Below, piece after piece: positions 16,638-41,917 of a DNA stretch of 64,000 nucleotides. The DNA comes from Afifellaceae bacterium (lineage in GTDB: Bacteria; Pseudomonadota; Alphaproteobacteria; Rhizobiales; Afifellaceae), in contig JANQRH010000008.1 in the NCBI GenBank assembly GCA_028284625.1, positions 227,441 to 291,440 on the forward strand, written 5' to 3'. Made by a program: the position numbers and the translations under genes. Numbering within the stretch: the stretch's first letter is position 1; each line of letters starts with the position of its first letter. The notes below the pieces were generated by a model. The model did not search any database. It was not told where the DNA came from and saw only the letters and a program-made list of their open reading frames with translations.

Positions 16638-16669
16638 GAACATATGACATTTTGTTTTACATATGTAAA
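16638..16669. promoter_or_regulatory. operator site A: GAACATATGACAT-n5-TTTACATATGTAAA, between the divergent transketolase and molybdoenzyme genes
   Basis: TTTACATATGTAAA (16656-16669) is a perfect 14-bp palindrome. The same half-site family recurs at 19194-19226 and 31570-31602. Confidence 0.5.
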
Positions 16670-19193: not shown

Positions 19194-19226
19194 TTTACAA
19201 ATGTCAATCATTATGTCATATGTAAC
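19194..19226. promoter_or_regulatory. operator site B: TTTACAAATGTCA-n6-TGTCATATGTAAC, upstream of the kinase/ADH/aldolase/SorC operon
   Basis: Read directly. It lies 24 nt upstream of the start at 19250. Its half-sites match sites A and C. Confidence 0.5.
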
Positions 19227-25186: not shown

Positions 25187-25189
25187 GGA

Positions 25190-25858: not shown

Positions 25859-25888
25859 TGCCTCCGTTGGTGGGGGCTTAGCGCGATG

Positions 25889-25925
25889 GCCCTGCCGCCG
25901 ATCCGGTTCGTGCCGGCGGCAGGGC
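25889..25925 (-). terminator. intercistronic stem-loop between dctP and dctQ
   Basis: A perfect 12-bp stem, gccctgccgccg (25889-25900) paired with cggcggcagggc (25914-25925), with a 13-nt loop. Confidence 0.6.
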
Positions 25926-25944
25926 TTGTTCGGCGAATGGCCGT

Positions 25945-26949: not shown

Positions 26950-27163
26950 GGGTTCCTCCATTCAGCGGTTAATCTCGATCCCGCGCAATTCTTACGGGTT
27001 GCACCTCGCGTCTCACTGGCAGCGCGGAGATGCAATGCAAAAAACGCGGCTGTGCGGCATTATGCGCAGAGACGTTTGCGGGGGTGGGTGGAAAGCGACA
27101 CATCGGCGCGTGTCACGTGGGTCGAACGCGACCCATTTCCGCAGAAATCGCAGCTTTGGCGCT

Positions 27164-28519
27164 TCAGCCGTCCGGTCCGTCGTCGCGGTAATCTTCGCGA
27201 TTAAGGCCGTGCTTGCGCATCTTCTCGTATAGCGATTTGCGCGACAGGCCGAGCGATTTGTAAGTCTCGTTCAGCCGGCCGCTCTGTGCGGCAAGTTCCG
27301 CGACGATGAGGTCGCGCTCAAACGCCTCCATCTTCTGCGCCAACGATCCGGCCTCGTCGCTCTCGTCCTCGACACCGTCGCCGTCGATGCCGAGCCCGAG
27401 CGCAAACCGGTCGGCGGCATTTCTCAGCTCACGGACATTGCCCGGCCAGGCGCGCGTGGCGAGCACGGATAGCGTGCTTGCCGGGATGTCCGGCGGCGCT
27501 TTGTGGGACCGGGCCGCGGCTTCCGCAACAAGTTGCGTGAACAGGCGCGGCACGTCGGCGACGCGCTGCTCCAGGGTCGGCATGCGCAGCGTCACGACGT
27601 TGAGGCAATACAAGAGATCGCTGCGAAAACGGCCTTCGGCCGCCTCTTGCTCAAGGTCAGCCTTGCTTGCGGCAACAAAGCGAACGTCGAGCGGGATCGG
27701 ATCGTTGGAGCCGAGGCGCGTCACGCTGCGCTCCTGCACGACCCGCAAGAGCTTGACCTGCAGATTGATCGGCATGCTCTCAATCTCGTCGAGGAACACC
27801 GTGCCGCCGCGTGCATGCTCAAACTTGCCGTAGCGCCCCTTGGTGGCGCCGAGAAATGCACCGGCCTCATGGCCGAAGAGCTCGTTCTCGATGAGATCGG
27901 CCGGCAGCGCTCCGCAATTGATGGCCACGAACGGCTCGCCGGCCCGCGGGCTTATGGCGTGCAGCGCGCGCGCCGCCACCTCTTTGCCGGTTCCGGTGGC
28001 GCCGACAATGAGAACGTCGGCATCGGTTGGGGCAACGGCCCGAATCTGGCGTCGGAGCTCGACCATGACATCGGTGCGGCCGGTCAGCCGCGCCTCCAAC
28101 TCGTCGCGCCGCGCCACGACGGAGCGCAGCTCGCGGTTCTCCAGCGTTAGGCGCCGCTTGTCGATGGCGCGTCTGACAACGTCGATGAGGTGATCGGAGG
28201 CGAAAGGCTTCTCGATGAAATCGTAGGCGCCGGCGCGCATGGCCTCCACGGCGAGCTGCACGTCGCCGTGGCCGGTCACTAGGACGATCGGAAGCTCCGG
28301 ATCGATGGCAAGAGCGCGCTGCATGAACGCCATACCGTCCAAGTTGGGCATGCGCATGTCGGTGACGAGCACGCCGTCATAGTCGCGATCGAGCAGATCG
28401 AGCACGGCTGATGCGTTTGAGAAGCACTCAGCTTGCAGATCGGCCAGGTCGAAGGCTTGCCTGGCCGCTAGGCGGATGTGCTCTTCATCGTCGATGAAGA
28501 TGACCTGCGCGCTGCTCAT
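27164..28519 (-). CDS. dctD: sigma-54-dependent response regulator (NtrC/DctD family)
   Basis: Receiver domain (VTDMRMP), AAA+ sigma-54 interaction domain (GATGTGKE, GAFLGA GAFTGA-like loop, FLDEIE) and a C-terminal Fis-type HTH. Confidence 0.9.
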   Translation of the reverse strand: MSSAQVIFIDDEEHIRLAARQAFDLADLQAECFSNASAVLDLLDRDYDGVLVTDMRMPNLDGMAFMQRALAIDPELPIVLVTGHGDVQLAVEAMRAGAYDFIEKPFASDHLIDVVRRAIDKRRLTLENRELRSVVARRDELEARLTGRTDVMVELRRQIRAVAPTDADVLIVGATGTGKEVAARALHAISPRAGEPFVAINCGALPADLIENELFGHEAGAFLGATKGRYGKFEHARGGTVFLDEIESMPINLQVKLLRVVQERSVTRLGSNDPIPLDVRFVAASKADLEQEAAEGRFRSDLLYCLNVVTLRMPTLEQRVADVPRLFTQLVAEAAARSHKAPPDIPASTLSVLATRAWPGNVRELRNAADRFALGLGIDGDGVEDESDEAGSLAQKMEAFERDLIVAELAAQSGRLNETYKSLGLSRKSLYEKMRKHGLNREDYRDDGPDG

Positions 28520-30369
28520 TCGGCAGCTTCCACCGCGCGGTCGGCGGCGTTCAGCTCGATCGTGAACTCAGCGCCTCCGCCAGGCCGGTTGGCGGCGTTC
28601 AGAGACCCGCCGAAGTCCTTGATGATGTTGTAGGAGACCGAAAGGCCCAGGCCGAGACCTTCGTTGATCCCCTTGGTGGTGAAGAACGGGTCGAAGATCA
28701 GGTCGAGATGCTCTTCGGCGAGCCCGCGGCCGTTGTCGCTAACAACGATCAAAACGCGATCGTCCTGGCGTTCCGCGCGGATGGTGATCTCCGGCGCCCG
28801 CTCGCTCTCCGGCACGGCGTCAAGCGCGTTGCCGATCAGATTGACCAGCACCTGTTGGAGGCGGACCTGACCGCCGACAACCAAGAGTTCTTCTTCGCCC
28901 AGGTCGACATGCACATTTGCGTCGCCGGAACGAAGCCGGCCGGCGAGAAGCTGCAGCGCGTCGTTGACGGCCGTCGCAACCGCGACTGTGCCGATCCGCT
29001 GCTGCGGCTTGCGTGCAAAGTTGCGGAGGTGGTTGCTGATCTCCGCCATGCGGTCGACCAGCTCCGATATCCGCGTGATGTTGTCCTGCGCCTCGCCGGT
29101 GCGCTGGCGGTCGAGATAGGCGTTGGCGTTCTCCGCATAGGACTTCATGGCGGCGAGCGGCTGATTGAATTCGTGCGACAGGGCGGCCGACATCTGGCCA
29201 AGCGCGGCGAGCTTTCCGGCCTGAACGAGGTCGGCTTGCGACTTGCGAAGGCGTCGCTCCGCGTCCGTGCGCTCACGGATTTCCAGCGTGAGCTGCTTGT
29301 TGGCCGCATCGAGGTCGATGGTTCGTTCGTTGACGCGCTGTTCAAGCTGCGCCTGCGCCTCGCGTTGCGCCTCCAGCCGCTCGTTCAACCGCACGCGCCG
29401 CTGCAAGAGGTAGGCCGCTGCAAGAGCGGCGACCATGATCGTGAGAATGGCCGCGACGAATGCGGAGGTCGCCTGCGCCGTCGCGGCGGCCCTCGGCGTC
29501 AAAAGGTGGATGGTCCACGCGGCCTCCGGCATGTCGAGCTCGGTCATCACGAAAGCTTCTGATGCGCCGGCTGTTTGAACAGTCATGAGGCGTGCCGTGG
29601 CCCCAAGCGCCTCGAAGCCGACGTCAAGGGGCTCCAGGCTCTCCAACGGGTACTGCTTGAACGTCTCGATCGCCTCCAGCGCTGCGGCGTCAAGCGGCGC
29701 AAGCGTCTTAAAATGCCACGCGTCGCGGCTCGACATGAAGATCACGCCGTTCTCGTCGGTGACGATCAGTTGGCTGTCGCCCCAGCGCCAAGCAGCTTCC
29801 AGGTCGTCGACGCTCACCTTCACGGCCACGACACCGACAATCGTGTCGTCGCTGCGGACCGGCGCCGCGAAGTAATAGCCGCGCTTCAGCGATGTCGTGC
29901 CCAGCGCGAAGTAGCGCCCGAGCTCGCCTTCCGCTGCGGCCTGGAAGTAAGGGCGATAGCTGAAAGCACGTCCGATGAAGGAAGTGTCGCTATCGAAATT
30001 GCTGGCGGCGAGGGTCACGCCGGCCGGGTTCATCACATAGATGTCCGAGGCGCCGACATCGGCTGCGATGCGCTTCAGTTCGCGGTTGGTGCGATCGATC
30101 CGATTATCCGACGCCAGCGTGAGGAGCGCTTTGATGTCCATCTTGTCGGCGATCAGGCCGGGCAGCGGCTCGTAGCGCATCAGCGCGCCGCGCAAGCCGG
30201 CGGCAGCCAGTCGCAATGTGCCTTCGCTCTGCTCGGCGGCGCGGTTCAGGAAGAATCGTTCCGTGGCGCCGAAGCCGAACCACCCGGCCAGTGCGAGCAC
30301 AAGCGCTGCCATAAGGAGCGCTGCCCAGAATCTCGACCAACGTCTTTTCACGCAACGATTATCGCGCAA
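28516..30369 (-). CDS. dctB: sensor histidine kinase (DctB-like: periplasmic sensor domain, HisKA, HATPase)
   Basis: Two TM segments flank a ~270-aa periplasmic domain. It has an H-box (SHEFNQPL) plus N, G1 and G2 boxes (GNALDA, DNGRG, GLGLGL). It overlaps dctD by 4 nt. Confidence 0.85.
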   Translation of the reverse strand: MRDNRCVKRRWSRFWAALLMAALVLALAGWFGFGATERFFLNRAAEQSEGTLRLAAAGLRGALMRYEPLPGLIADKMDIKALLTLASDNRIDRTNRELKRIAADVGASDIYVMNPAGVTLAASNFDSDTSFIGRAFSYRPYFQAAAEGELGRYFALGTTSLKRGYYFAAPVRSDDTIVGVVAVKVSVDDLEAAWRWGDSQLIVTDENGVIFMSSRDAWHFKTLAPLDAAALEAIETFKQYPLESLEPLDVGFEALGATARLMTVQTAGASEAFVMTELDMPEAAWTIHLLTPRAAATAQATSAFVAAILTIMVAALAAAYLLQRRVRLNERLEAQREAQAQLEQRVNERTIDLDAANKQLTLEIRERTDAERRLRKSQADLVQAGKLAALGQMSAALSHEFNQPLAAMKSYAENANAYLDRQRTGEAQDNITRISELVDRMAEISNHLRNFARKPQQRIGTVAVATAVNDALQLLAGRLRSGDANVHVDLGEEELLVVGGQVRLQQVLVNLIGNALDAVPESERAPEITIRAERQDDRVLIVVSDNGRGLAEEHLDLIFDPFFTTKGINEGLGLGLSVSYNIIKDFGGSLNAANRPGGGAEFTIELNAADRAVEAAE

Positions 30370-30397: not shown

Positions 30398-30477
30398 CAG
30401 AGCCCATTGGAGGCTCTGTTTCTTTATTGGAGCATGATCTTATCCGAAAACCGGTTCCCACTTTTCGGGATCATGCT
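30398..30477. repeat. REP-like palindromic repeat, family 3, abutting the stop codon of the PfkB kinase gene
   Basis: The reverse complement, agcatgatcccgaaaagtgggaaccggttttcggataagatcatgctccaataaagaaacagagcctccaatgggctctg, aligns with 37453-37554. Confidence 0.75.
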
Positions 30478-31421
30478 TAGTCCAGGCGCTCCGCCTGGCG
30501 CATGAATTGTTGCGTCGCGGCAAGGTCCACGACACCGGCGTCAGAGCCGAGGCCGGTGGCGACCAAAGCGGACGTCGCCGTGCCGAGCTCGCAGGCCTCG
30601 CGCACGCCAAGGCCCATCGCCAGCCCGGCAACGAAGCCGCCGCAATAGGAATCGCCGCAGCCCGTCGTGTCCGATACGGCGACCTTGTAGGCTGGCAGCC
30701 GATACTCTTCGTCCGCCGTCTTTACGAACGATCCCTTGGCGCCCCATTTAAAGACGCAGGCGCCGGCGCCCAATTCCATGAAGAAGGCGGCCATGTCGCG
30801 CGGCTCGCTGCGGCCGGAAAGAAACGCCGCTTCCTCCATCGACGGCATGAAGTAGTCGACATGCGGGAGCGTATCCTTCAGCAGCGTCACGGTCTGGTCG
30901 TTGGGGGCGATGAGGTCGAAGGTGACGGTCAGGCCTTTGGCTTTGGCGTGTGCCAGCAAAGCAGCGCTCGGCCCGGCATCCATGGCGTTCATCAGGCCGG
31001 TGCCGCCGTGATGCAGGATGCGCGCATCGCAGACGCGATCGAAGTCAGCTTCTTTCACCTCCAGGAAGTCGGACGCGCCGCGCTGGTGGAGGGCAGGGCG
31101 CTCGCCGTTGGGGCGTATCGTCAGAATGGTGGCGGAGGTCGGTGCGGAATCCGTGCGCTGCACCATGGAGCAATCGATGCCCATGCCGGCATATTGATTG
31201 AGGATGAAATCGCCTTTCTCGTCGTTGCCTACACAGGCGATCGTGGCGGTGCTGATACCGAGCTTGGCGGCATTCATGACGGCGCCCGCCGCAGTTCCGG
31301 CCGGGTTCATGCGGATCTCTTCGATGAACTCCACGCCGCCGCCATCGGGGATCTTCGACACCGGGCGTCCGGCGATATCGAGAATGGTCAGTCCGACGAA
31401 GACGGCATCGAAGTTCGGCAT
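30477..31421 (-). CDS. PfkB family carbohydrate kinase (ribokinase/2-keto-3-deoxygluconate kinase-like)
   Basis: 314 aa with the C-terminal PfkB signature DTTGCGDSYCGGF and an N-terminal GG dipeptide region. Confidence 0.85.
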   Translation of the reverse strand: MPNFDAVFVGLTILDIAGRPVSKIPDGGGVEFIEEIRMNPAGTAAGAVMNAAKLGISTATIACVGNDEKGDFILNQYAGMGIDCSMVQRTDSAPTSATILTIRPNGERPALHQRGASDFLEVKEADFDRVCDARILHHGGTGLMNAMDAGPSAALLAHAKAKGLTVTFDLIAPNDQTVTLLKDTLPHVDYFMPSMEEAAFLSGRSEPRDMAAFFMELGAGACVFKWGAKGSFVKTADEEYRLPAYKVAVSDTTGCGDSYCGGFVAGLAMGLGVREACELGTATSALVATGLGSDAGVVDLAATQQFMRQAERLD

Positions 31422-31569
31422 GGCGGCGCTTCCTTAGTTCTGTCCTTGCTCATGTGCAGCCCGCCTCCTGAACAGGCGGCGTGATCATTCTCTGGCACTC
31501 TCCTCCCGCTGGCGCCAGGCGCTGTGCGGTTTTGTGCGGCCGGCTCCTAAACCGCTATTTGTACGTAGA

Positions 31570-31602
31570 TTTACATATGACGTTCGAATTGACATTTGTA
31601 AA
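31570..31602. promoter_or_regulatory. operator site C: TTTACATATGAC-n7-TTGACATTTGTAAA, between the divergent PfkB kinase gene and the ABC/RLP operon
   Basis: Read directly. The inverted-repeat half-sites match sites A and B. Confidence 0.5.
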
Positions 31603-31672
31603 TCGGGATTTAGGATAGAGACGGGAAGCCGTGCGTGTTCTGTACCGACGACGCGGCGAGATGGAGGAGCTT

Positions 31673-32650
31673 ATGTGGGGAATAGTGAAAGCAGTCGCCG
31701 TCGGAACGCTGGTATCGACCGCGTTCGTCGCGACAGCGCAGGCCGACGGGCATCTGTCGCTTGAAGGCAAGCGGATTGGCGTCGCCGTGGTCGGCACGCA
31801 GCATTTCTGGGATCGCGAAGCGTTTACCGGCGCCATCGAAACGGTGGAGAAGCTTGGCGGCGAGGTCGTTCAGGTGGATGGCGGCCGCGACAACCAAGTG
31901 CACGCCGACAATCACGACGTCCTCTTAGCGAACGAGGTGGACGCGGTGATTTCCATCCTCGGCGATGCCGCTGTGGAACCCAAGTTCGAAGCGCTGAAGA
32001 ACGCCGGGATTCCGGTCTTCACGGTCGACCATCCGTCGCCGCATGCGATCAACAACACGACCTCCGACAATTACTACATGGGCACGACGATCGGCCGCTA
32101 CATGGCGGATGCGATCGGCGGCTCCGGCAAGGTTGCGGTGTTCAACGCCTTTGAAGGCGCGCTGCGCATCTGCGGTATCCGTACGGGCCTGTGGAAATAC
32201 GTGCTGAGCGATTATCCGGAGATTGAGATTCTTCAGCCGGAGCTGGCGGAAGAGTTCGCCAACGCGCCGGAGGATGCACGCAAGCAGACACTCGATCTTC
32301 TCAGCCAATATCCGGAAGGCACGATCGACGCGATCCATGTGGGCTGCTGGGACCAGCCGGCGATCGGCGTGGTGCAGGCGCTTGAAGAGGCCGGCCGCAC
32401 CGATGTCGTGGTGACCGCGCTCGATGGCGGTCCCGATACGCTCGAGATCATGGCTGAAGAGGGGAGCCCCTTCGTCGCCAATGTCGCACAGCAGCCACGA
32501 CTGATCGGGTCGACATCCGCCATGAACGTGGCGCGGCATTTTGCGGGCGAGACCCTGTTGCCGCAGACTTATGTCGATGTCGTGCCGGTCAACGGAGCGG
32601 AGGAGGCGAAAGCCGCCTACCAGAATCTCGGCTACGGGACGCTCGAATAG
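31673..32650 (+). CDS. periplasmic sugar-binding protein of ABC transporter (CUT2 type); track start 31631
   Basis: ATG at 31673 preceded by GGAGGAG. Signal peptide MWGIVKAVAVGTLVSTAFVATAQA. Confidence 0.85.
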   Translation: MWGIVKAVAVGTLVSTAFVATAQADGHLSLEGKRIGVAVVGTQHFWDREAFTGAIETVEKLGGEVVQVDGGRDNQVHADNHDVLLANEVDAVISILGDAAVEPKFEALKNAGIPVFTVDHPSPHAINNTTSDNYYMGTTIGRYMADAIGGSGKVAVFNAFEGALRICGIRTGLWKYVLSDYPEIEILQPELAEEFANAPEDARKQTLDLLSQYPEGTIDAIHVGCWDQPAIGVVQALEEAGRTDVVVTALDGGPDTLEIMAEEGSPFVANVAQQPRLIGSTSAMNVARHFAGETLLPQTYVDVVPVNGAEEAKAAYQNLGYGTLE

Positions 32651-32666
32651 TCCGCCTCAACGATTG

Positions 32667-32692
32667 GAGGGCGCCGGTGCTTCGGCGCCCTC
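32667..32692 (+). terminator. stem-loop just downstream of the binding-protein gene
   Basis: A 10-bp stem, gagggcgccg paired with cggcgccctc, with a 6-nt loop, followed by tctcattt. Confidence 0.55.
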
Positions 32693-32786
32693 TCATTTGG
32701 TGTCGGCGCGTGCCATGATGGCCGGGTTCGCCGGCAATCCACACCGGCAAGACGTGTGAGCTTTTTGGGGAAGGAGCCATTTGGGG

Positions 32787-34328
32787 ATGGCCGGTCCTGT
32801 CTTGCAGATGCGCGACATCGTCAAGACCTTTCCCGGCGTGCGCGCGCTGGATGGCGCTTCCATAAGCGTATCTGAAGGCGAGATTCACGGCCTTGTCGGT
32901 GAGAACGGCGCTGGCAAGTCGACGGTCATCAAAGTGCTCGCCGGCGTCTACGGCGCCGACAGCGGCTCCGTTACGCTGGACGGCCAGCCGCTCACCGCCA
33001 TCACGCCGGCGAATGTCCACGACGCGGGCATCCGCTTCATCCATCAGGACCTTCATCTCGTTCCGCATTTTACGGTCACCGAATCGGTGTTCATGGGGCA
33101 GGAAGTGGCCGGGCGGTTCGGTCTTTCCAAGCGCCAGATGCGCAATATGGCGGAGCGCTTCTTCCGCGAGGTTCTCGACATCGAGATCGGCTGCGGCCGT
33201 CTGATCCGTGATTTGACCACAGCGGAGCGTAAGCTTGTGCAGATTGCGCGTGCGCTCATCGACGACAAGGCGCGACTGGTGGTGTTCGACGAGCCGACTG
33301 CGCCTTTGGCCATCGGCGAGATCGAAAAGGTGTTTGCCGCCATTCGCCGACTGAAGGCGCAGGGCATCGCGATGATCTACGTGTCGCACTATCTTTCCGA
33401 GATCACCGAGATCTGTGATCGCGTCACCGTGTTCCGCAACGGCAAGGACGTCGCGGTCTTCGACAAGATCAGCGACGACAGCGCCGAGGACATCATCAAG
33501 GCCATGGTGGGGCGCGAGCTGGGGCAGCTCTATCCCAACCGCACGCACGCGGCGGGCGAGCCGCTCCTTTCGGTGCGTGGCTTGTCGGACGGGAACCGAT
33601 TCTTCGACGTTGATCTGACGCTGCGGCGCGGTGAGATTCTCGGCATCGCCGGCTTGATCGGCTCGGGCCGCGAGGAACTGGTCGATACGCTTTACGGATT
33701 GCGCAAGGCGAAGTCCGGCACGATCGAGCTCGCCGACTTGCCGCTCAAGCTTTCCAAACCGGCCGATGCCGTCGGCAAGGGCGTGGTGCTGGTGCCGCGC
33801 GACCGCCGCGGCGACGGGTTGGTGCTCGCCATGAACGTGATGGAGAATATCAACCTCGCGTCGCTGGAGGAGGTCTCCAAGCTCGGCTGGGAGATGCGCG
33901 GCGCGGCGCGTAAGCGTGCGGAGAAGCTGATCGGCGACCTCGACATTCGCCCGACTAATCCTGACGCCATCGGGCAGACGCTAAGCGGCGGTAATCAGCA
34001 GAAGGTGGTGCTTGGTCGCTGGCTCGCCATCGATGCGCGGGTGTTCATTCTCGACGAGCCGACAGCGGGCGTGGATGTCGGCGCCAAGGTGGAGATCTAT
34101 CAGCTCATTGAGGATCTCGCCGCCAAGGGCGCCGGCATCGTGGTCTCGTCGTCGGACCCCGGCGAGCTGATCGGCCTCTGCGACCGCATCCTTGTGATGA
34201 TGCGTGGCCGCATCAATCACGAGATCGGAACGCAAGGGCTGAGCATCGACCAACTCGTGGCGATGACCACCGGCGCGGCGGATTTCAGCACGGCAGGGGG
34301 CACGGCGAGGAGCGCTCATGCCGGATAG
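32787..34328 (+). CDS. sugar ABC transporter ATP-binding protein (tandem NBDs, RbsA/MglA-like)
   Basis: Two NBDs. NBD1 has GENGAGKST, a degenerate signature (LTTAERK) and VVFDEPT. NBD2 has a canonical LSGGNQQK and FILDEPT. ATG at 32787; the track uses a TTG at 32781. Confidence 0.9.
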   Translation: MAGPVLQMRDIVKTFPGVRALDGASISVSEGEIHGLVGENGAGKSTVIKVLAGVYGADSGSVTLDGQPLTAITPANVHDAGIRFIHQDLHLVPHFTVTESVFMGQEVAGRFGLSKRQMRNMAERFFREVLDIEIGCGRLIRDLTTAERKLVQIARALIDDKARLVVFDEPTAPLAIGEIEKVFAAIRRLKAQGIAMIYVSHYLSEITEICDRVTVFRNGKDVAVFDKISDDSAEDIIKAMVGRELGQLYPNRTHAAGEPLLSVRGLSDGNRFFDVDLTLRRGEILGIAGLIGSGREELVDTLYGLRKAKSGTIELADLPLKLSKPADAVGKGVVLVPRDRRGDGLVLAMNVMENINLASLEEVSKLGWEMRGAARKRAEKLIGDLDIRPTNPDAIGQTLSGGNQQKVVLGRWLAIDARVFILDEPTAGVDVGAKVEIYQLIEDLAAKGAGIVVSSSDPGELIGLCDRILVMMRGRINHEIGTQGLSIDQLVAMTTGAADFSTAGGTARSAHAG

Positions 34329-35304
34329 CGTCGCGACACGCCCCGGTGGGTTCGATCTGCGCCGCGCGGTCGGCATGGCGCCGGTGGCGATCTTTGTCGC
34401 CATGCTCATCTATATCGGCTTCAACGCGCCGAACTTTCTGACCTGGAGCACGATCCAGCTTGTTCTGAGCCAGAGCGTGCCGGTGGTGGTCGTTTGCCTC
34501 GGGCTTTCGGTCGTCGTCATGGCGGGTGGCGACGATGTCGTCTCCGGCGGTATCGACCTTTCCGTGCCCGCCACGGCGATCCTCTGTGCGGGCATCATCG
34601 CGCAGCAGGTGACGCTGGCCGAGCAGCCGCTCTTCCTGGCGGCGATGCTGGCGTTCGGCGCGGCGCTTATCGTAGGCGCGCTTAACGGCTTTCTCGTCAC
34701 ACGCATCGGCATGACGCCGCTCCTGACGAGCCTGGCGATGTTCGTGGCGGTCGTTGGCGTCAACAATGTCATCACCGCCAGCCGCCGTATCGACATCGAC
34801 GCACCGTTGATTCTGTTCCTGCGCGACGATCGAATCGTCGGGCTGCCGGCCGGTGTGGCGATCGCGCTGGTTCTGTGCGTGGTGTTCGTGTTCGCCATCC
34901 ACCACACGAAGTGGGGGCTGAACCTTCAAGCCGTAGGCGGCAGCCGGGAGGCGGCCGAGGTCTCCGGCCTCCGCCCCAGCCACTTCCTCTTCTGGTCCTT
35001 CGTCATCGCCGCCTTCGCCGGCTTCTTGGCCTCGTTCTTTGTGCTTGCGCGCGGCTCCGGCTCTTCGCCGGGGACGGAGGACAATTTGCTGCTTGAGATG
35101 GTGCTTGCGACGTTTCTCGGCGCATCGTTTTCGCCGCGCCGTGTTGTGACGGTCTGGGGCGCGGTTCTCGGCGCGGTGCTCGTCGCCGCCTTATCGATCG
35201 GCTTCAAGTCGATGGGCGTCAACGTCTTCTGGACCGGGCTCATCAAGGGCTCACTCATCTTGATCGTCGTCGCACTCGGCGCGGCCTCTCAAAGGATGCG
35301 CTGA
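34318..35304 (+). CDS. sugar ABC transporter permease 1 (RbsC-like)
   Basis: Polytopic protein that overlaps the ATPase gene by 11 nt. Confidence 0.85.
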   Translation: MPDSVATRPGGFDLRRAVGMAPVAIFVAMLIYIGFNAPNFLTWSTIQLVLSQSVPVVVVCLGLSVVVMAGGDDVVSGGIDLSVPATAILCAGIIAQQVTLAEQPLFLAAMLAFGAALIVGALNGFLVTRIGMTPLLTSLAMFVAVVGVNNVITASRRIDIDAPLILFLRDDRIVGLPAGVAIALVLCVVFVFAIHHTKWGLNLQAVGGSREAAEVSGLRPSHFLFWSFVIAAFAGFLASFFVLARGSGSSPGTEDNLLLEMVLATFLGASFSPRRVVTVWGAVLGAVLVAALSIGFKSMGVNVFWTGLIKGSLILIVVALGAASQRMR

Positions 35305-36284
35305 TGGCCGATAGCGTCGCCGGATCGGAACAGGCCACGGGTACGCGCTGGACGCTGCCAGTGCGTTACGGCTTTCTCGTCCTTATCGCCGCGTTTGTGG
35401 TGTTCTTCGCCACAATGAACCCGGTCTTCCTCCACGGCGGCAATCTGATGAACATCGTGGAGGGCTCTGCGATCCTTCTGATCGTGGCACTCGGCATGAC
35501 GTTGATCGTCTCCACAGGCGGCATCGATCTTTCTGTGGGGATCGCACTTGATTTCGGCGCCGCCTTCGCCGTCGTCGCGATGAAGGAATTCGGCGTGGAC
35601 TGGTATACGGCCGCGCTGATCGGCATCGCCGGCGGAAGCCTTGTCGGTCTCTTGAATGCCGGCTTGGTGGTCGGCCTGAAGGTCAGCCCGTTTCTGGCAA
35701 CGCTCGGCACCTTCTTCATCGGCTCGTCCGTGCAGCGCATCTTCACCAATGGCGGCGGTCCGATCTCGCATCGCCGTATGCCGCAGGAATATCGCGACCT
35801 GGCAGTCGGCGACATTTTCGGCATTCCGACAGAGGTGGTGATCGCGGGCGTCATCTGCCTCATCTATTTCGTCGTGCTGGAGCGCTCCATCATCGGGCGG
35901 CGCGTGCACGCGCTTGGTATGCAGCGCTCGGCGGCGAACGTCGCCGGCCTGAAAGTGAACCGCTACCTCATCGCCTGCTTCATCGTGGCGTCGATGACTT
36001 GTGCGGTCGGCGGTTTGATCGCATCCGCCAATATCCGCATGTTCACGCCGCTGTCGGGCTTCGCCTATCTGCTTGACGCCATCGCAGCGGTGTTCATCGG
36101 CGCAGCACTGCATCCGCGGGGGCGGCCCAACGTGCCCGGCACCCTCGTTGCGGTGCTGTTCCTGAGCGTCGTCACAAACGGGCTCAATTTGATGGGGCTG
36201 AACTTCAACACCAAGGACGCGCTGTCGGGCATCATCCTCGTCTCGGTCCTGGCGCTGGCCGTGGCGCAGCGCAAGCTGCGTTGA
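35304..36284 (+). CDS. sugar ABC transporter permease 2 (RbsC-like)
   Basis: Polytopic protein. Its start overlaps the previous stop by 1 nt. Confidence 0.85.
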   Translation: MADSVAGSEQATGTRWTLPVRYGFLVLIAAFVVFFATMNPVFLHGGNLMNIVEGSAILLIVALGMTLIVSTGGIDLSVGIALDFGAAFAVVAMKEFGVDWYTAALIGIAGGSLVGLLNAGLVVGLKVSPFLATLGTFFIGSSVQRIFTNGGGPISHRRMPQEYRDLAVGDIFGIPTEVVIAGVICLIYFVVLERSIIGRRVHALGMQRSAANVAGLKVNRYLIACFIVASMTCAVGGLIASANIRMFTPLSGFAYLLDAIAAVFIGAALHPRGRPNVPGTLVAVLFLSVVTNGLNLMGLNFNTKDALSGIILVSVLALAVAQRKLR

Positions 36285-36301
36285 GAAAAGGCGAGGGTTC
36301 T

Positions 36302-37459
36302 ATGACCGAGCGTTTTTCCGTTCTTTACCTCATCTTTGCCGCGAACCGTGCGGAGGCGGAGGCGCGCGCGGAGGGCATTGCGCGGGAGCAGACCGTCGAA
36401 GTGCCGCGCGATGTCGTGCCGGCGGGCTATATAGAAGACGTGATCCTCGGCCAGGTCGCGGCCGTGACCGAGGACGGCGAGGGGACGTTTCGCGCCGAGA
36501 TCACCTATTCGCCGGATTCCGTCGGCACCGACCTGCCGCAGCTCATCAACGTGATCTTTGGCAATTCCTCCATCCAGAAGGGGCTGAAGGTTATCGACTT
36601 CAAGGCGTCGCCGGCATTGAGGACGCTGTTTCCAGGCGCGCGCTTCGGCATCGACGGTATTCGCCGCCTGAGCGGCCGCGAGACCGGCGGCTTCGTCTGC
36701 CCCGTCATCAAGCCGCAGGGATCGACGGCGGAGCGACTGGCGGAGATCAGCTACATGGCGGCGCGCGCCGGCGCCGATATCATCAAGGAGGATCACGGGC
36801 TGTCGAACCAGCCGGCCGCGCCGTTTCGTGAGCGGGTGTCGATCATGGCGCGTGAAGTGGCGCGTGCCAATGCGGAGCGCGCCGAAGCCGGCGACACGGC
36901 GTGCGCTCTCTATTTCGCCAATCTCTGCGGGCCGGGTCTCGCCATCCGCGACTATGCGATGCACGCCAAAGAGGCGGAAGCGCATGGCGTTCTCGTCATG
37001 CCGGGGCTCTTCGGTTTCGACGCGATCAATCAGCTTGCCGCGGATGACGATTTCGGTTTGCCGATCATGGCTCACCCGTCGCATCTGGGGCCCTATGTTC
37101 TGTCGCCCGATACCGGCTATTCCCACGGCGTGATGTTTGGCGCGCTGATGCGGCTGGCCGGCGCCGACATCTCCGTCTTTCCCAATGTCGGCGGCCGCTT
37201 CGGATTCACTGAAGCGGAATGCCTCGACATCACCGACCAGTGCAGGGCCGCTGATGGCTACGGCAGGCCGATCCTGCCGAGCCCCGGGGGCGGCATGACG
37301 ATGGAGCGCATGCCGGACATGATGCGCATGTACGGCCCGGACTGCGTGTATCTGCTCGGCGGTGGCCTGCTGCGCTACGGCGATCGCATCGGCGAGGCCA
37401 TCGGCGATATGCGGCGGGCGCTCGACACCGACATGCCTGGTTCGGCTGCCAGAGCATGA
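36302..37459 (+). CDS. RuBisCO large-subunit family protein, form IV RuBisCO-like protein (RLP)
   Basis: VIKPQGSTAERLAE...AGADIIKEDHGLSNQPAAPFRERV aligns by eye with RuBisCO TIKPKLGLS...[24 protein letters not shown]. ATG at 36302 with a GAGG RBS, 17 nt after the permease stop. Confidence 0.85.
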   Translation: MTERFSVLYLIFAANRAEAEARAEGIAREQTVEVPRDVVPAGYIEDVILGQVAAVTEDGEGTFRAEITYSPDSVGTDLPQLINVIFGNSSIQKGLKVIDFKASPALRTLFPGARFGIDGIRRLSGRETGGFVCPVIKPQGSTAERLAEISYMAARAGADIIKEDHGLSNQPAAPFRERVSIMAREVARANAERAEAGDTACALYFANLCGPGLAIRDYAMHAKEAEAHGVLVMPGLFGFDAINQLAADDDFGLPIMAHPSHLGPYVLSPDTGYSHGVMFGALMRLAGADISVFPNVGGRFGFTEAECLDITDQCRAADGYGRPILPSPGGGMTMERMPDMMRMYGPDCVYLLGGGLLRYGDRIGEAIGDMRRALDTDMPGSAARA

Positions 37460-37554
37460 TCCCGAAAAGTGGACACCATCTTTTCGGGTAAGATCATGCT
37501 CAGACAAAGAGACAGAGCCTCCATTCTGATTCAATCAGAATGGACAAGGCTCTG
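37453..37554. repeat. REP-like palindromic repeat, family 3, overlapping the RLP stop codon
   Basis: The sequence agcatgatcccgaaaagtggacaccatcttttcgggtaagatcatgctcagacaaagagacagagcctccattctgattcaatcagaatggacaaggctctg. Its first 20 nt are identical to the inverted copy at 30398-30477. Confidence 0.75.
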
Positions 37555-37682
37555 GCTGAGGCTGCCTGCGCCGGCCTGATCGCTGCAAACGCGCGGCCAA
37601 CTCGTTTCTCCCGTCATTCTTGTGGCAAAGCATTGCCACGATGTCGTCTATTGTCGGCGGCGATTTAAAGTGGGGGACAGGC

Positions 37683-38849
37683 ATGACAGCGAATGGCGAG
37701 CGGCCGGGTGAGAGCGCCGTGGCGAGCGGGCTGAAGATCACGGACGTCCAGGGGCTCTATCTCCGCCTGCCGGAGATCAAGGCACGCACGGACAGCTCGC
37801 AGGATGCGCTTATCGTGCGCATCGAGACCGATGCCGGCATCACCGGCTGGGGTGAGGTCGACGGTTGTCCTCTGGTGACGAAGGCCGTCATCGACGCGCC
37901 TATGTCTCATAATCTGGTGTCGGGTCTGCGTGTCCTGTTGCTTGGCGAAGACCCGTTCGACATCGCGCGCCTGTGGCGCAAGATGTATGAAAGCACGCTT
38001 TATTTCGGGCGCGAGGGCGCGGTGATCCAGGCCATGGCGGGGATCGACATTGCGCTGTGGGACATCAAGGGCAGGGCGCTCAGCCAACCGATCTGGAAGC
38101 TGCTCGGCGGCGCCTTTCGCGACAAGCTTCGGGTCTATTCCTCCAACATGTTCCAGTTCACGCCAGAGGCGACCGCCGATCGGGTTCGCCAGGCGAAGGA
38201 CGAGGGCTTTACTGCGGCGAAGTTCGGCTGGGAGCCGTTCGGGCGCGACGCGGCGACGGACTGCGCCTATCTCGACGCTCTGCGCAAAGCGGCGGGGGAC
38301 GATTTCGACCTGATGCTCGATGTCGGGCTCGTGTGGGATGCGACGACCACCATCCAGCGCGCCAAGCTGTTTGAGCCCTATGGCCTCTACTGGATCGAAG
38401 AGCCGCTCCACCCCGACGATCTCCGTGGCTATGGCGCGGTCAGTCGCGCCATCTCACAGCGCCTGGCCGCCGGCGAGGAAGAGTGCACCTATCGCGGCTT
38501 CCAACGGCTGATCGATGAGGGCGGCATCGGTCTCGCGCAGATCGACATGACGCGCTGCGGCATCAGCGAGGCGATGAGCATCGCCAGCTATGCGGCGAAG
38601 CGCGGCGTGATGGTCGCCAACCACAACTTCACGACCGACATCAACACGGCCGCGTCGCTGCATTTTCTCGCCGCCGTGCCCAATGCGCTGGTGCTGGAAT
38701 ATTGCGTCGAGCCGTCTGAGATATCGCGCAATCTGGCGCGCAATCCGTTCCGTCAAGAAGACGGGTTCATGCGCGTGCCGGATGCGCCCGGGCTTGGCTT
38801 TGAGCCCAATATGGAGACGATTGAGCGGTTCCTGGTGAGGGACAATTAG
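37683..38849 (+). CDS. enolase superfamily enzyme (mandelate racemase/muconate lactonizing family; acid-sugar dehydratase-like)
   Basis: N-terminal capping domain plus a barrel with metal-ligand contexts (LMLDVGLVWD, YWIEEPL, AAGEEE). The ATG at 37683 is preferred over the track start at 37620. Confidence 0.8.
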   Translation: MTANGERPGESAVASGLKITDVQGLYLRLPEIKARTDSSQDALIVRIETDAGITGWGEVDGCPLVTKAVIDAPMSHNLVSGLRVLLLGEDPFDIARLWRKMYESTLYFGREGAVIQAMAGIDIALWDIKGRALSQPIWKLLGGAFRDKLRVYSSNMFQFTPEATADRVRQAKDEGFTAAKFGWEPFGRDAATDCAYLDALRKAAGDDFDLMLDVGLVWDATTTIQRAKLFEPYGLYWIEEPLHPDDLRGYGAVSRAISQRLAAGEEECTYRGFQRLIDEGGIGLAQIDMTRCGISEAMSIASYAAKRGVMVANHNFTTDINTAASLHFLAAVPNALVLEYCVEPSEISRNLARNPFRQEDGFMRVPDAPGLGFEPNMETIERFLVRDN

Positions 38850-38925
38850 GCGCCGTCTGTTCGATTTAGGCGCGGATCGAGCCCTTCATGATGCCTGACT
38901 CATCGGGTGGCGGCTGTTGTGCGCC

Positions 38926-40824
38926 TCAAATCAGCGTGGCAGCGTATTGGCGCTGAACGTCTTCGCACCAATTTCCGACATTCCACTGGCCGTAGGCGCC
39001 CATCCCGCCGGCGGGCGCGTCGCCGAAATAGACCGGGACGTGGACCAGGCTGAGACCGCGATGCGCTTTGGCTTGCTCCAGGGAGTGGGTGAGGGAGGCG
39101 CGATCGAAACCGCCCGAAAGTGCGAGCACGCCTTTGACGGCGCTGGCGAGCTGGACGTAGTCGACCGCCACATTGTCTGACGTGCGGTGGTCGTGACCAT
39201 ATTGCGCAATCTGCAATTGGCTGATCGCGGCCATGCGTCGGTTGTCGAAGAGCACAATGGTGGCGTGCACGCCGTGCTCCACACCGTCGAGGAGCACTTG
39301 CGGGTTCATCATGAAGGACCCGTCACCGGTGAAAGCGACGGCGTAGCGCCCCTCGTGGGCGATCGCTCCGGCAAGCAGCGCGGAGACGGCAAAGCCCATA
39401 TAGGATGCGCCGGCCTCGGTGAACGTTTCGCCGACCTCATCGTCCTCGACGATCTGAAAGCCGTTGGCCTGAACGTCGCCGGCATCGAAGAATTTCGTCG
39501 CACCGACGCTCTTGCAGAAATCGGCGGCGATCTTGATTGCCTGCGGCTGCGTCAGGACGGGGCGCTGCCAGACCGCATCGACTGGGCGCTCCGCGTCATA
39601 TTGCGCGACCTTGAAGGCGGACCATTCGGTTTTCTTCTCCGCGCAGCGTGTCAGCCATTCCACTTTGGCCGGAGATGGCGCCGACTGTTCGGCGGCGAGA
39701 CGCCCGCTCAGGCGATTGAGGATCACGCCGGCGTCGCCGCGCAAAGCGAGCGTGCGATTGTAATGCTCAACGTCCGTCGGGTCGGCGTTGATGTTGACGA
39801 CGTTCTGCACATTCGGCCAGCCGATCCCGGAGCAGTCGCTTTGGCAGACGGCGCGGCTGCCGACGACGACAAGAAGCTCCGCCTCCTGCATGGCGAAATT
39901 GCCGCTGATCGACCCCTTCGATCCACCGACATGCATGTTTTGCGGATGGGCGTCGGGAAGCACGCCGGTGGAACCGGGGCTGAGCACAACGGCCGCCCCG
40001 CACGCTTCTGCGAAACGTCTGAGCTCCGCGCCGAACGAGCGTGTGCCGCCCCCAGCCTTTATGGCAATTCGATTGTGCTCGGCGAGCAGCGCCGCAGCAT
40101 CGCTGTAGGCTTGCTCATCGGCCGGCACGGCGGGCGACATGCGCGGCGCGCAGGGCAGGGCGTCGATGCGCAGGGTCAGCATTTCAGGCTGCGTGTTGAG
40201 CGGCAGGTTCAGGAAGAACGGCCCCGGCCGCCACGGGTGGAACACGGCCGCCGCGCCTTTGCGCAGCGCGTCACGAACGGCGCCCGGCGTGTGCAGCGTG
40301 TAGGACTGGCCCATGAGCGCGGTGATCTGGCCGAACAGGCCCTGCGCCGGCTTCGGCACCTGCTGCATGTTGTAGCCTTCGCCGTGCGTCGTCTCATCGC
40401 CATAGATGTGATAGACGCCGATCCCGTTGGACGCGGCGGCCAGCGATCCCGCCATCGCCTGCAATGCGCCCGGCCCGATCGAGGTGACCACCGCGCAGGT
40501 CTCGCCATAAACCCAGCGAAGCGCCGTGCCGGCGTGGGCCATCTCCACCTCGTTGCGAAACTGCCAGCTCCGGACAAGGCCGTGCGCCTCGTAGTGCCGC
40601 AGCACTTCGCCGATCGCCGTGGAGCCGTGGCCGAGCACGACCAGATATTTGGTGACGCCCTGCCGCATCAATCCGAGCACCAGCGCCTCGGCGAGCGGCA
40701 GGGTGATCGGCTCGCTCAGGAGGCCGGCTTCGATGGCCGCTTCGAGCCCGCCGGCCTCTTTCAGCCAGGCGGCGCGCGCTGCCGTTGACTGGGGAACCGG
40801 TTGCGCGGGATCGGTTTTAAGCAT
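38926..40824 (-). CDS. thiamine-pyrophosphate-dependent enzyme (acetolactate synthase / IolD-like)
   Basis: TPP-binding motif GDGSFMMNPQ...N and a three-domain length (632 aa). The ATG at 40824 lies 20 nt after the upstream gene's stop at 40844; the track over-extends to 40902. Confidence 0.8.
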   Translation of the reverse strand: MLKTDPAQPVPQSTAARAAWLKEAGGLEAAIEAGLLSEPITLPLAEALVLGLMRQGVTKYLVVLGHGSTAIGEVLRHYEAHGLVRSWQFRNEVEMAHAGTALRWVYGETCAVVTSIGPGALQAMAGSLAAASNGIGVYHIYGDETTHGEGYNMQQVPKPAQGLFGQITALMGQSYTLHTPGAVRDALRKGAAAVFHPWRPGPFFLNLPLNTQPEMLTLRIDALPCAPRMSPAVPADEQAYSDAAALLAEHNRIAIKAGGGTRSFGAELRRFAEACGAAVVLSPGSTGVLPDAHPQNMHVGGSKGSISGNFAMQEAELLVVVGSRAVCQSDCSGIGWPNVQNVVNINADPTDVEHYNRTLALRGDAGVILNRLSGRLAAEQSAPSPAKVEWLTRCAEKKTEWSAFKVAQYDAERPVDAVWQRPVLTQPQAIKIAADFCKSVGATKFFDAGDVQANGFQIVEDDEVGETFTEAGASYMGFAVSALLAGAIAHEGRYAVAFTGDGSFMMNPQVLLDGVEHGVHATIVLFDNRRMAAISQLQIAQYGHDHRTSDNVAVDYVQLASAVKGVLALSGGFDRASLTHSLEQAKAHRGLSLVHVPVYFGDAPAGGMGAYGQWNVGNWCEDVQRQYAATLI

Positions 40825-40843
40825 GCCTGCGGTCAGCTTTCCG

Positions 40844-41917
40844 TCACGCGTCGATCGTGACGGTTTTGCCCGTGCGGGCCGATTCCTCTGCGGCGAGCGC
40901 AAAGCGAAGGACTTGCCGTCCCTCCGCTGCCGTCAGGACCGGCGGGCTGCCGTTGGCGATGGCGTTGAGGAAATGGCGGGTGGAGAGGATGAAGCTTTCC
41001 TCCCAGCCGGTCGGCATCTCATCATAGGTGGTGAAGCTGCCGTCGCGATAGAGCGCGACGGGCGGTGGATTGCCCAGTCGCCCATGGCCGCAATTGATCC
41101 AGAGGACGCCTTTCGAGCCGGTGATCTCGACGCGGTCATCCTGTGCGTAATGCTGGGTCGCGATCTCCAGTTCCGGCGAATAGACGACCTCAAGGTTGCC
41201 GATCCGATTGTCCGGGAAACGGAACGACACGATGGACTGCGCGTCGAGCCACGAGCCGTCATCAAGCGTGGTCTTGCCGATGAAGGCGTGGACGTCGCTC
41301 GGGTTTCCCATGAAGTGCCAGGCCAGCGCGAATTTGTGGTGCCCGTCGTCGAAGACCAGCGGGCCGCCGCCGGATTTCGACCGGTCCTGCCGCCATGCGG
41401 TCGCTCCTTTGGGGATCGCCCAGGCGGTTTGGCTCGTTCCGGCGTTGCTCTTGATCCTGATGGAGAGCGGCGTGCCAATGGCGCCGTCGTCGATTAGTTG
41501 CCGCGCGCGGAGTACTGGCGGGTAGAAGACGAAATTCTCGAAGATCTTGACCGGCCGATCGGCGGCGTCCGCGGCGGCGACAAGCCGGTCCGCCTCGTCC
41601 AGAGACACGCACATCGGCTTCTGCAGCGAGACGATCTTGCCGGCAGCAATCGCCTTCAACGCCGCCTCAAGATGAAGGTGGTGGGGCAGCAGAATCTCCA
41701 CCAGATCGACATCGGGGCGCGCCAACAATTCATCCAGATCGTCGGTGATTGCGACCTCGGTCAGTCCCCAGGCGGCGGCGCGACCTTCGGCCAACGATGC
41801 GTCGCGGTCGCACAACGCCACGATACGCCCGTCGGCGCTTTGCAAATATTCGATGGCGTGGAGGTCGGAGATGCGGCCCGTCCCCACAATGCCGACCCCG
41901 ATGGGCGCGCGGCTCAT
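40844..41917 (-). CDS. Gfo/Idh/MocA family oxidoreductase
   Basis: N-terminal Rossmann IGVGIVGTGRISDLH and an EKP-like motif (LQKPM). Confidence 0.85.
   Translation of the reverse strand: MSRAPIGVGIVGTGRISDLHAIEYLQSADGRIVALCDRDASLAEGRAAAWGLTEVAITDDLDELLARPDVDLVEILLPHHLHLEAALKAIAAGKIVSLQKPMCVSLDEADRLVAAADAADRPVKIFENFVFYPPVLRARQLIDDGAIGTPLSIRIKSNAGTSQTAWAIPKGATAWRQDRSKSGGGPLVFDDGHHKFALAWHFMGNPSDVHAFIGKTTLDDGSWLDAQSIVSFRFPDNRIGNLEVVYSPELEIATQHYAQDDRVEITGSKGVLWINCGHGRLGNPPPVALYRDGSFTTYDEMPTGWEESFILSTRHFLNAIANGSPPVLTAAEGRQVLRFALAAEESARTGKTVTIDA

Follow-up and report, generated by a model that had tools for sequence, protein, structure and literature searches.

A RuBisCO-like protein and a split transketolase in an Afifellaceae bacterium: a likely undescribed branch of methylthioadenosine/5-deoxy-sugar salvage

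Importer operon, RuBisCO-like protein and shared operator

The stretch of DNA analyzed here (the window, 64,000 nucleotides of contig JANQRH010000008.1, positions 227,441 to 291,440, assembly GCA_028284625.1 of an Afifellaceae bacterium) encodes a RuBisCO-like protein (RLP) as the last cistron of a sugar ABC importer operon. Gene content and neighborhoods suggest that this RLP most likely marks an undescribed branch of methylthioadenosine/5-deoxy-sugar salvage rather than a new acid-sugar pathway, with a split transketolase as its partner. A preliminary description made from the letters of the sequence had named the principal genes, all of which were recovered by Pfam and NCBIfam where it placed them and in the families it gave. 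The importer operon and its divergent neighbor consist of:

30477-31421, minus strand: PfkB-family kinase, YdjH-like (Pfam PfkB; best PDB match E. coli YdjH, 3H49)
31673-32650, plus strand: CUT2 periplasmic solute-binding protein (SBP), polyol-binder-like (Pfam Peripla_BP_4; PDB 3L49, 4WT7)
~32787-34328, plus strand: ABC importer ATPase with two fused ABC domains (Pfam/NCBIfam)
34318-35304 and 35304-36284, plus strand: two BPD_transp_2 ABC permeases (Pfam/NCBIfam)
36302-37459, plus strand: form IV RLP of the transketolase-linked clade, last importer-operon cistron (Pfam RuBisCO_large)
37455-37560, plus strand: two stable hairpins at the operon end (RNA fold -49.3 kcal/mol, z = -7.1)

The PfkB gene is divergent from the SBP-ATPase-permease-permease-RLP unit, and the whole arrangement is present on an identical 7-kb contig from an independent sequencing run. 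The stop codon of the second permease gene (TGA, 36282-36284) and the RLP ATG at 36302 are separated by exactly 17 nt, as had been noted; the ATG is preceded by a GAGGG Shine-Dalgarno-like motif and specifies the same start methionine as in aligned homologs. On the basis of this spacing, and of a sequence scan that found no promoter-like or terminator-like site in the permease-RLP gap, the earlier proposal that the RLP is co-transcribed with the importer genes appears likely to be correct. The gap between the SBP and ATPase genes holds a GC-rich hairpin of 12 bp followed by a T-rich tail (32666-32693); such a hairpin after an SBP gene is the usual device that raises SBP expression over that of the membrane components. 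The hairpin pair at 37455-37560, adjacent and directly 3' of the RLP stop, is without a T-tract and may represent either a terminator or a palindromic repeat element. YdjH, which the PfkB protein resembles, phosphorylates 2-ketoses at C1. The SBP matches the structures 3L49 (241 bits) and 4WT7 (220 bits), the latter being an Agrobacterium vitis SBP with bound allitol (PMC10318746).

The intergenic region between the PfkB and SBP genes contains a 30-bp bipartite motif, ACATATGAC-N7-TTGACATTTGTAAA in that copy, and the pattern ACATATGAC-N7-TTKACATWTGTAAA has exactly three matches in the 64-kb window versus none expected (100 shuffles). The operator copies and the further genes under them are:

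16640-16669, plus strand: operator copy 1, in the intergenic region between the divergent tktN and molybdopterin oxidoreductase genes (pattern match)
19194-19223, minus strand: operator copy 2, upstream of the FGGY operon (pattern match)
31573-31602, plus strand: operator copy 3, between PfkB and SBP, overlapping the -35 box of the importer promoter (pattern match)
14678-15682, minus strand: tktC, pyrimidine-binding and C-terminal domain subunit of a split transketolase (Pfam Transket_pyr + Transketolase_C)
15692-16618, minus strand: tktN, N-terminal subunit of the split transketolase, binding thiamine diphosphate (ThDP), atypical (Pfam Transketolase_N)
16711-19008, plus strand: cytoplasmic BisC-family molybdopterin S-/N-oxide reductase (Mo-reductase; Pfam Molybdopterin + Molydop_binding; TIGR00509 bisC_fam, 871 bits versus a cut-off of 1018)
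19250-20758, plus strand: FGGY-family sugar kinase, xylulokinase-like (Pfam FGGY_N/C; TIGR01312, 289 bits, below cut-off)
20765-21826, plus strand: Zn-dependent alcohol/polyol dehydrogenase (ZnADH; Pfam ADH_N + ADH_zinc_N)
21819-22484, plus strand: class II aldolase/epimerase-family protein, DrdA/AraD-like (Pfam Aldolase_II; NF005123, 248.9 bits versus a cut-off of 251)
22582-23589, plus strand: SorC/DeoR-type sugar-binding regulator (Pfam Sugar-bind)

One operator is common to three units, namely the divergent tktNC and Mo-reductase genes, the FGGY-ZnADH-aldolase-SorC operon, and the divergent PfkB and ABC-RLP genes. Copy 3 overlaps a promoter-like TTGACA-16-TAGGAT sequence with its TTGACA at 31589, and in many of the related loci a similar motif precedes tktN or the importer genes. 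The SorC-type regulator, whose start codon was set by comparison with a related locus (L068) and whose family is represented in 41-45 related loci, probably binds the shared operator and is a candidate repressor. The claim that the split transketolase, 20 kb from the RLP within the window, is co-regulated with the RLP unit is therefore well founded, given three operator copies, one of them at tktN, and the conserved gene neighborhood described below. The class II aldolase finds its best PDB match in 6BTD (125 bits), with AraD nearly equal (120 bits); 6BTD is DrdA, a 5-deoxyribulose-1-phosphate aldolase (PMC6079011).

RLP relatives, their gene neighborhoods and the split transketolase

The RLP belongs to the RuBisCO_large family (PF00016, 58 bits versus a cut-off of 30) and has 98 RuBisCO or RLP matches in the PDB. 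The best of these is 3QFW (E = 6e-53, 184 bits, 34% identity), which is named generically in the PDB table and is presumably Rhodopseudomonas palustris RLP1; it stands clearly above 2ZVI and 2OEM, and is followed by MtnW enolases and then, far lower, by Photo/NonPhoto RLPs and true RuBisCOs. The RLP1 family consists of 5-methylthioribulose-1-phosphate (MTRu-1P) 1,3-isomerases that act with an adjacent cupin (PMC5893883). The reaction of this family turns MTRu-1P into 1-methylthioxylulose-5-phosphate/1-methylthioribulose-5-phosphate. The motifs FGN88SSIQ, K137-P-Q139-G, K162-E-D164-H165 and A-H258-P align one to one with 3QFW, which also shares IK(D/E)DHGL, FPNxGGRF, GG(G/S)LL and glycine-rich phosphate loops. 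This set is invariant across 20 aligned family members, whereas the MtnW counterparts are FGKLS and KDDE in place of FGN88SS and KEDH. Residues essential for carboxylation of ribulose-1,5-bisphosphate are K177, E204, R295, H327 and K334 (spinach numbering). The RLP is without K177, E204 and R295, the positions corresponding to H327 and K334 being approximate since they were placed by motif alignment; K-P-Q139 is found for K-P-K, K162-E-D-H165 for K-D-D-E, and H258-P for H-R. Family membership together with the missing RuBisCO residues thus bears out the earlier assignment as a form IV RLP, which by these residues is not a carboxylase.

In a neighbor-joining tree, which carries no support values, the transketolase-linked RLPs (38-65% identical among themselves) group together as one clade, to which 3QFW is sister, MtnW being the outgroup. 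By the tree, by the tktNC partner and by the lack of a cupin, the RLP appears to lie outside the characterized isofunctional cluster, in a large, uncharacterized clade that most resembles the DeepYkr isomerases. The RLP of Rhizobium etli and R. phaseoli was considered as the same type and rejected as a distant one (~31% identity over 64% of the query); it has been reported to be needed for biotin-independent growth and to have "ribose transport" neighbors (PMC8914248).

When GTDB species were scanned, each represented by a single genome, 566 stretches encoding RLP relatives were obtained, the highest RLP identity among these representatives being 69%. Neighborhoods were counted, by tblastn and by clustering of neighboring open reading frames, in the best 80 of the 566 (55-69% RLP identity, almost all Rhodobacterales and Hyphomicrobiales). 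The dominant neighbor is a split transketolase, whose subunits are 75-92% identical to the window copy across taxa where the RLP is only 55-69% identical. The end of tktC lies -4 to +26 nt from the RLP start in 58 of the 66 loci with enough upstream flank, a spacing that indicates translational coupling. Reciprocally, when metagenome contigs were scanned with tktN as seed, tktC and then the RLP followed in 35 of the 45 loci having at least 1.5 kb after tktN, and 7 of the 10 exceptions show the window-like layout with the Mo-reductase divergent from tktNC. No recurrent small cupin family was found in the 80 loci, the recurrent neighbor being tktNC.

The company kept by these genes is that of methylthioadenosine metabolism. 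An IF-2B-family protein (mtnA) is encoded in 54 of 74 loci and an APH-family kinase (mtnK) in 46 of 74, with scores of 425 bits for TIGR00512, the S-methyl-5-thioribose-1-phosphate isomerase model (cut-off 279), and 465 bits for TIGR01767, the S-methyl-5-thioribose kinase model (cut-off 275); a ribose-type ABC importer, an RbsD/FucU mutarotase and a SorC regulator accompany them. PGAP/RefSeq annotation gives mtnK-mtnA-tkt-tkt-RLP operons on three plasmids, Brucella anthropi ATCC 49188 pOANT04, Pararhizobium qamdonense p3 and one from Ensifer, and all three carry a SorC regulator, a bifunctional aldolase/short-chain dehydrogenase (SDR) and an importer alongside. An alternative entry is seen in Frigidibacter, Oceanicola and Ponticoccus, where a purine-nucleoside phosphorylase (PNP) and a TRZ/ATZ amidohydrolase resembling 5'-deoxyadenosine/methylthioadenosine deaminases are found with mtnA; e.g. 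plasmid p-SCP4 of Ponticoccus alexandrii, an alga-associated roseobacter, carries a single operon PNP-amidohydrolase-mtnA-Mo-oxidoreductase-tktN-tktC-RLP (locus L083, 4614-13137) divergent from a BMP-family nucleoside ABC importer. The canonical genes mtnB, mtnX and mtnD were not seen in the RLP loci, and within the 64-kb window there are no mtnK, mtnA, phosphorylase or deaminase genes. Judged from gene content, the module is tied via three entry routes to the metabolism of sugars derived from methylthioadenosine and 5'-deoxyadenosine.

The bifunctional class II aldolase/SDR (680-730 aa) stands beside SorC in B. anthropi pOANT04 (L082, 1678-3732) and in loci L084 and L085. It is encoded in 26-27 of the 80 genomic loci, the copy in L014 passing the NCBIfam "rhamnulose-1-phosphate aldolase/SDR" equivalog threshold, and might be a fusion of the aldolase of the dihydroxyacetone phosphate (DHAP) shunt with an aldehyde reductase/dehydrogenase. 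In Cohaesibacter celericrescens a second, very divergent split transketolase (27-33% identity; L004, 17321-19095) is encoded 6 kb away from the RLP, with sugar-nucleotide-type genes around it (DegT aminotransferase, SIS, epimerase).

The split transketolase is itself unusual. The best PDB match of tktN is 6YAK, the Carboxydothermus split transketolase, in whose alignment the GHP His is without a counterpart, and no NCBIfam transketolase equivalog or subfamily model reached threshold with the window tktN and tktC. Alignment by MAFFT with E. coli TktA indicates that the cofactor motifs are kept, i.e. the ThDP/Mg GDG-x-N and the cofactor-activating Glu, as are counterparts of R358, S385, E411, H473 and R520, which include substrate-phosphate binders. 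Among the histidines (E. coli numbering) His66, His473 and perhaps His261 have counterparts, His100 has none and the place of His26 is taken by an invariant Tyr; Gly stands for Asp469, and G27-G28-Y29 and E132-H133 are invariant in the tktN family. In the yeast and E. coli transketolases His100 and His26 contact the donor C1-OH, and loss of their counterparts would fit a C1 that carries S-methyl or H rather than OH.

Comparison with relatives identifies the window as a rearranged and rarer variant. Its closest RLP relatives are 75-76% identical and include a TARA ocean scaffold with the order FGGY (minus) divergent from SBP-ATPase-permease-permease (plus), then Mo-reductase (minus) divergent from tktN-tktC-RLP (plus). 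In L095 and L116 PfkB is divergent from a single SBP-ATPase-permease-permease-tktN-tktC-RLP operon, which in L116 is adjoined by SorC-PfkB-aldolase-ZnADH; in L068 the genes FGGY-ZnADH-aldolase-PfkB-SorC-tktN-tktC-RLP-Mo-reductase all run in one direction. PfkB orthologs (68-71% identity) recur beside tktNC-RLP in L068, L095, L108, L109 and L116, so that the association of this kinase with the RLP, first remarked from the window, extends to other genomes. An FGGY kinase is beside tktNC-RLP in L012, L020, L036, L044, L068, L086 and L104, ZnADH orthologs (53-83% identity) occur in L012, L068, L104 and L116, and several loci have the FGGY, ZnADH and aldolase genes together. A Mo-reductase gene divergent from tktN is seen in at least 13 of the related loci; in P. 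alexandrii it forms part of the operon. By this comparison the only difference of the window is that tktNC has moved next to the Mo-reductase, leaving the RLP immediately after the second permease. A metagenome-assembled Ensifer genome (L009) carries both types: its RLP closes the common importer operon, tktNC is divergent from ZnADH-Mo-reductase, the window-type importer is next door and mtnK/mtnA are also present. With one RLP and one transketolase in this locus, both importers appear to feed one transketolase/RLP pair.

Proposed pathway and its alternatives

On balance it is considered probable that the RLP and the split transketolase constitute a two-enzyme module acting on ketopentose phosphates from 5-methylthioribose and/or 5-deoxyribose, of which the window carries a rearranged variant. 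Such 5-substituted 5-deoxyriboses are the sugar remnants of S-adenosylmethionine (SAM) use. In most genomes the sugar would be taken up by a ribose-type ABC importer and converted by MtnK and MtnA to 5-X-ribulose-1-phosphate, which in some genomes would be reached instead by nucleoside importer, deaminase, phosphorylase and MtnA. The RLP would then shift the carbonyl to give 1-X-D-xylulose-5-phosphate, as in its nearest characterized relatives, and the transketolase would cleave between C2 and C3 to give glyceraldehyde-3-phosphate and a ThDP-bound two-carbon fragment, which might be transferred, be released as an aldehyde, or eliminate methanethiol. A 1-substituted D-xylulose-5-phosphate is a D-threo 5-phosphate donor with a non-hydroxyl C1, and hence would suit a transketolase without C1-OH-binding residues. 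Since the orthologs sit in mtnK-mtnA-tktN-tktC-RLP operons, chemistry of the methionine-salvage/5-deoxypentose type is most likely, and the acid-sugar framing under which the locus was first described is not upheld.

In the window, without MtnK and MtnA, a polyol-like or ketose substrate may enter through the polyol-type SBP, the ZnADH and a ketose kinase (PfkB or FGGY), probably to arrive at the same ketose phosphate as in the common variant. The BisC-like S-oxide reductase suggests that the substrate carries sulfur and that sulfoxide forms are handled, favoring a methylthio substituent. The early expectation that both substrate and reaction may be new holds for part of the route: the RLP step is probably the known 1,3-isomerization, and it is the transketolase step and the polyol-type entry that appear to be undescribed.

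A more speculative and rather doubtful extension makes the split transketolase a C-S-releasing ThDP enzyme, in which the ThDP enamine formed by cleavage of 1-methylthio-D-xylulose-5-phosphate would expel methanethiolate to leave acetyl-ThDP, and from it acetate or acetyl-phosphate. Precedents for ThDP elimination are the phosphoketolase dehydration and fluoride loss from fluoropyruvate. If true, this would be an O2- and glutathione-independent route that recovers sulfur (as methanethiol) and all of the methylthioribose carbon, and variants with an S-oxide reductase and a polyol importer, as in the window, would scavenge oxidized or reduced environmental derivatives. The module itself occurs in several hundred species of Alphaproteobacteria, among which are many marine ones.

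Several points weigh against the salvage module as proposed. The RLP is just 33-42% identical to the characterized isomerase clade and its reaction could differ, the neighbor-joining tree that places it is without support values, and the order of action, RLP before transketolase, is a matter of inference. The transketolase residue comparison was made with E. coli TktA, and its N-terminal alignment is weak. In many loci there is, in addition, a class II aldolase or aldolase/SDR that could cleave the same ketose-1-phosphate, which leaves the need for the RLP and transketolase unexplained. Finally, with no mtnK/mtnA in the window and an SBP that resembles an allitol binder, the window variant might use a sulfur-free sugar.

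Carried through to the whole module, that last point becomes the best surviving alternative, and it is essentially the view of the preliminary description minus the enolase: an ordinary sulfur-free polyol or sugar would be imported, oxidized by the ZnADH and phosphorylated by the PfkB or FGGY kinase, and new RLP/transketolase chemistry would follow on the hexulose or pentulose phosphate. The SBP, closest to 3L49 and to 4WT7 with its allitol (PMC10318746), the classic polyol-pathway parts (ZnADH, FGGY kinase, PfkB kinase, AraD-like epimerase) and the lack of mtnK and mtnA within 64 kb all agree with it. It is nevertheless regarded as unlikely: the same transketolase and RLP, at the identities given above, occupy the mtnK-mtnA operons of most genomes, which makes a different substrate class unlikely, both importers and mtnK/mtnA surround a single RLP and transketolase in the Ensifer genome, and the S-oxide reductase recurs with the window-type variant.

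A reversed sequence is judged improbable. Here the transketolase would act first, by two-carbon transfer onto (methylthio)acetaldehyde released by an aldolase or by cleavage of the ketose-1-phosphate, and the RLP would tautomerize or isomerize the product; the gene order tktN-tktC-RLP in nearly all loci, and the aldolases that could supply an aldehyde acceptor in ~40 loci, would be in keeping with this. However, RLP substrates are phosphorylated and the common variant has no kinase for the transketolase product, and a transketolase requires of its donor precisely the D-threo 5-phosphate configuration that is found in the product of the sister RLP clade (PMC5893883).

The RLP is highly unlikely to be the MtnW-type 2,3-diketo-5-methylthiopentyl-1-phosphate (DK-MTP-1P) enolase of canonical methionine salvage, a role that its best NCBIfam match (NF007095, DK-MTP-1P enolase) and the mtnK/mtnA neighbors of its relatives might suggest. 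The scores fall far short of the cut-offs (184 versus 409 bits for NF007095, 141 versus 514 for TIGR03332), the catalytic Lys of FGKLS is Asn88 and KDDE is KEDH, the loci are without mtnB, mtnX and mtnD, and 3QFW is the clearly better structural match. A D-apiose-type system, in which the RLP would act as a decarboxylase or transcarboxylase on 3-oxo-isoapionate-4-phosphate beside an apulose-4-phosphate transketolase, was suggested by the split transketolase and RLP in one regulon, both of which published apiose pathways use, and appears effectively refuted by family scores and neighborhoods, since the apiose RLP (OiaX) model NF042437 gives 56.9 bits versus a cut-off of 700 and covers residues 71-193 alone, no transketolase subfamily model is matched, the DUF1537 kinase, apionate oxidoisomerase and lactonase are all absent, and relatives have mtnK and mtnA as neighbors.

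Adjacent genes, significance and comparison with known systems

The enolase-family gene that follows the RLP had been counted with its pathway. It does follow, 224 nt 3' of the RLP, but this gap, the two hairpins within it and the lack of an operator copy place it outside the RLP unit, as a neighbor and not a member. It belongs to a separate cluster (37684-42708), in which it converges on a minus-strand unit:

37684 (or 37620)-38849, plus strand: MR_MLE_N/C protein of the enolase family, acid-sugar-dehydratase-like (Pfam/NCBIfam; scores far below equivalog cut-offs)
38926-40902, minus strand: thiamine pyrophosphate (TPP) enzyme, IolD/acetolactate-synthase-like (scores far below equivalog cut-offs)
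40844-41917, minus strand: Gfo/Idh/MocA oxidoreductase (scores far below equivalog cut-offs)
41914-42708, minus strand: IclR regulator (scores far below equivalog cut-offs)

The enolase-family gene, TPP enzyme, Gfo/Idh/MocA oxidoreductase and IclR regulator were rejected as pathway members, since they occur in 0 of the 80 loci, have no operator copy and are set off by the hairpins. An inositol-like variant, suggested by a weak resemblance of the PfkB kinase, TPP enzyme and Gfo oxidoreductase to IolC, IolD and IolG, was rejected on the same grounds. In P. alexandrii an MR/MLE gene lies 3 kb beyond the RLP operon in an unrelated-looking cluster.

Other systems in the window include a TRAP transporter (DctP/Q/M, minus strand) with a sigma-54-dependent two-component pair (histidine kinase 28516-30369, NtrC-type regulator 27164-28519), which together occupy 23813-30369 between two operator-sharing units. 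Directly left of the transketolase genes (9498-14515) are a PhyH-family dioxygenase, a LacI-type regulator, an aldehyde dehydrogenase and an M24 creatinase/prolidase-like protein, with no operator copy among them in the pattern search of the window. Another CUT2 ABC importer is found at 5896-8843, whose SBP (7896-8843, minus strand) is nearest to the rhizopine-catabolism SBP model (265 bits versus a cut-off of 420), an SBP_bac_1 ABC system begins at 42797, and adenylate/guanylate-cyclase-domain proteins, one fused to DUF427, are encoded at 49596-51170 and 3423-5204.

Few RLPs have an assigned function, and the module offers a definite proposal for the substrate of an entire RLP clade and points to an unusual ThDP enzyme. 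Its relevance to the RLP family and to salvage of SAM by-products rests entirely on genomic inference. On this reading, SAM-derived sugars in the surroundings, possibly as sulfoxides or polyols, would be scavenged by alphaproteobacteria of the sea and the rhizosphere. The module is directly testable because the culturable type strain B. anthropi ATCC 49188 carries it. Reviews list three bacterial fates of methylthioadenosine, i.e. the canonical O2-dependent pathway, the RLP-cupin isoprenoid shunt and the DHAP shunt, and those up to July 2026 name no transketolase among them (PMC13474568, PMC6302742). No description of a transketolase-RLP module was found in the literature, an earlier mention in subscription-only RLP papers remaining possible; its place beside mtnK/mtnA and dedicated importers points to a putative fourth route.

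Among known systems the apiose RLPs (OiaX etc.) and the apulose-4-phosphate split transketolase share with the module the pairing of the two protein types in sugar catabolism with an ABC importer. There, however, the RLP and transketolase serve alternative pathways, whereas here they are translationally coupled, and the sequence families do not match. MtnW/YkrW of Bacillus methionine salvage belongs to the same superfamily and is the second-best match group of the RLP, which differs in having Asn for the catalytic Lys, another metal-site motif, and no mtnB/mtnX/mtnD context. With canonical and split transketolases (E. coli TktA, 6YAK) the fold, the ThDP/Mg GDG...N motif, the activating Glu and the phosphate-binding Arg/Ser are shared, and the differences are the missing GHP His, the invariant Tyr for the first catalytic His, and the Gly at the Asp469 counterpart.

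The DHAP shunt and 5-deoxyribose salvage comprise MtnK or MtnP, MtnA and the class II aldolase Ald2, or DrdK-DrdI-DrdA; their first two steps are those of the module, and their gene clusters are of the same type, sugar transporters being included in some (PMC6079011; PMC13474568), and DrdA is the closest PDB relative of the window class II aldolase. In the module the RLP and transketolase are added to the aldolase or replace it, and in the window a ZnADH, an FGGY kinase and a PfkB kinase are found instead of MtnK/MtnA. The closest likeness is to the DeepYkr isomerases (the Rhodospirillum rubrum RLP and R. palustris RLP1), which are also short form IV RLPs of ~375-385 aa, include the best structural-database match, and have the FGNSS, KPQG, K-x-D-H and AHP motifs in common with the window RLP, whose relatives likewise have enzymes making MTRu-1P (MtnA with MtnK or a phosphorylase) encoded nearby. 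The DeepYkr partner in the methylthioadenosine-isoprenoid shunt is a cupin, 1-methylthioxylulose-5-phosphate methylsulfurylase (PMC5893883). In contrast, the window clade, a separate sister clade at 33-42% identity, is partnered by a split transketolase, and its members are often tied to ABC importers, which suggests an external substrate.

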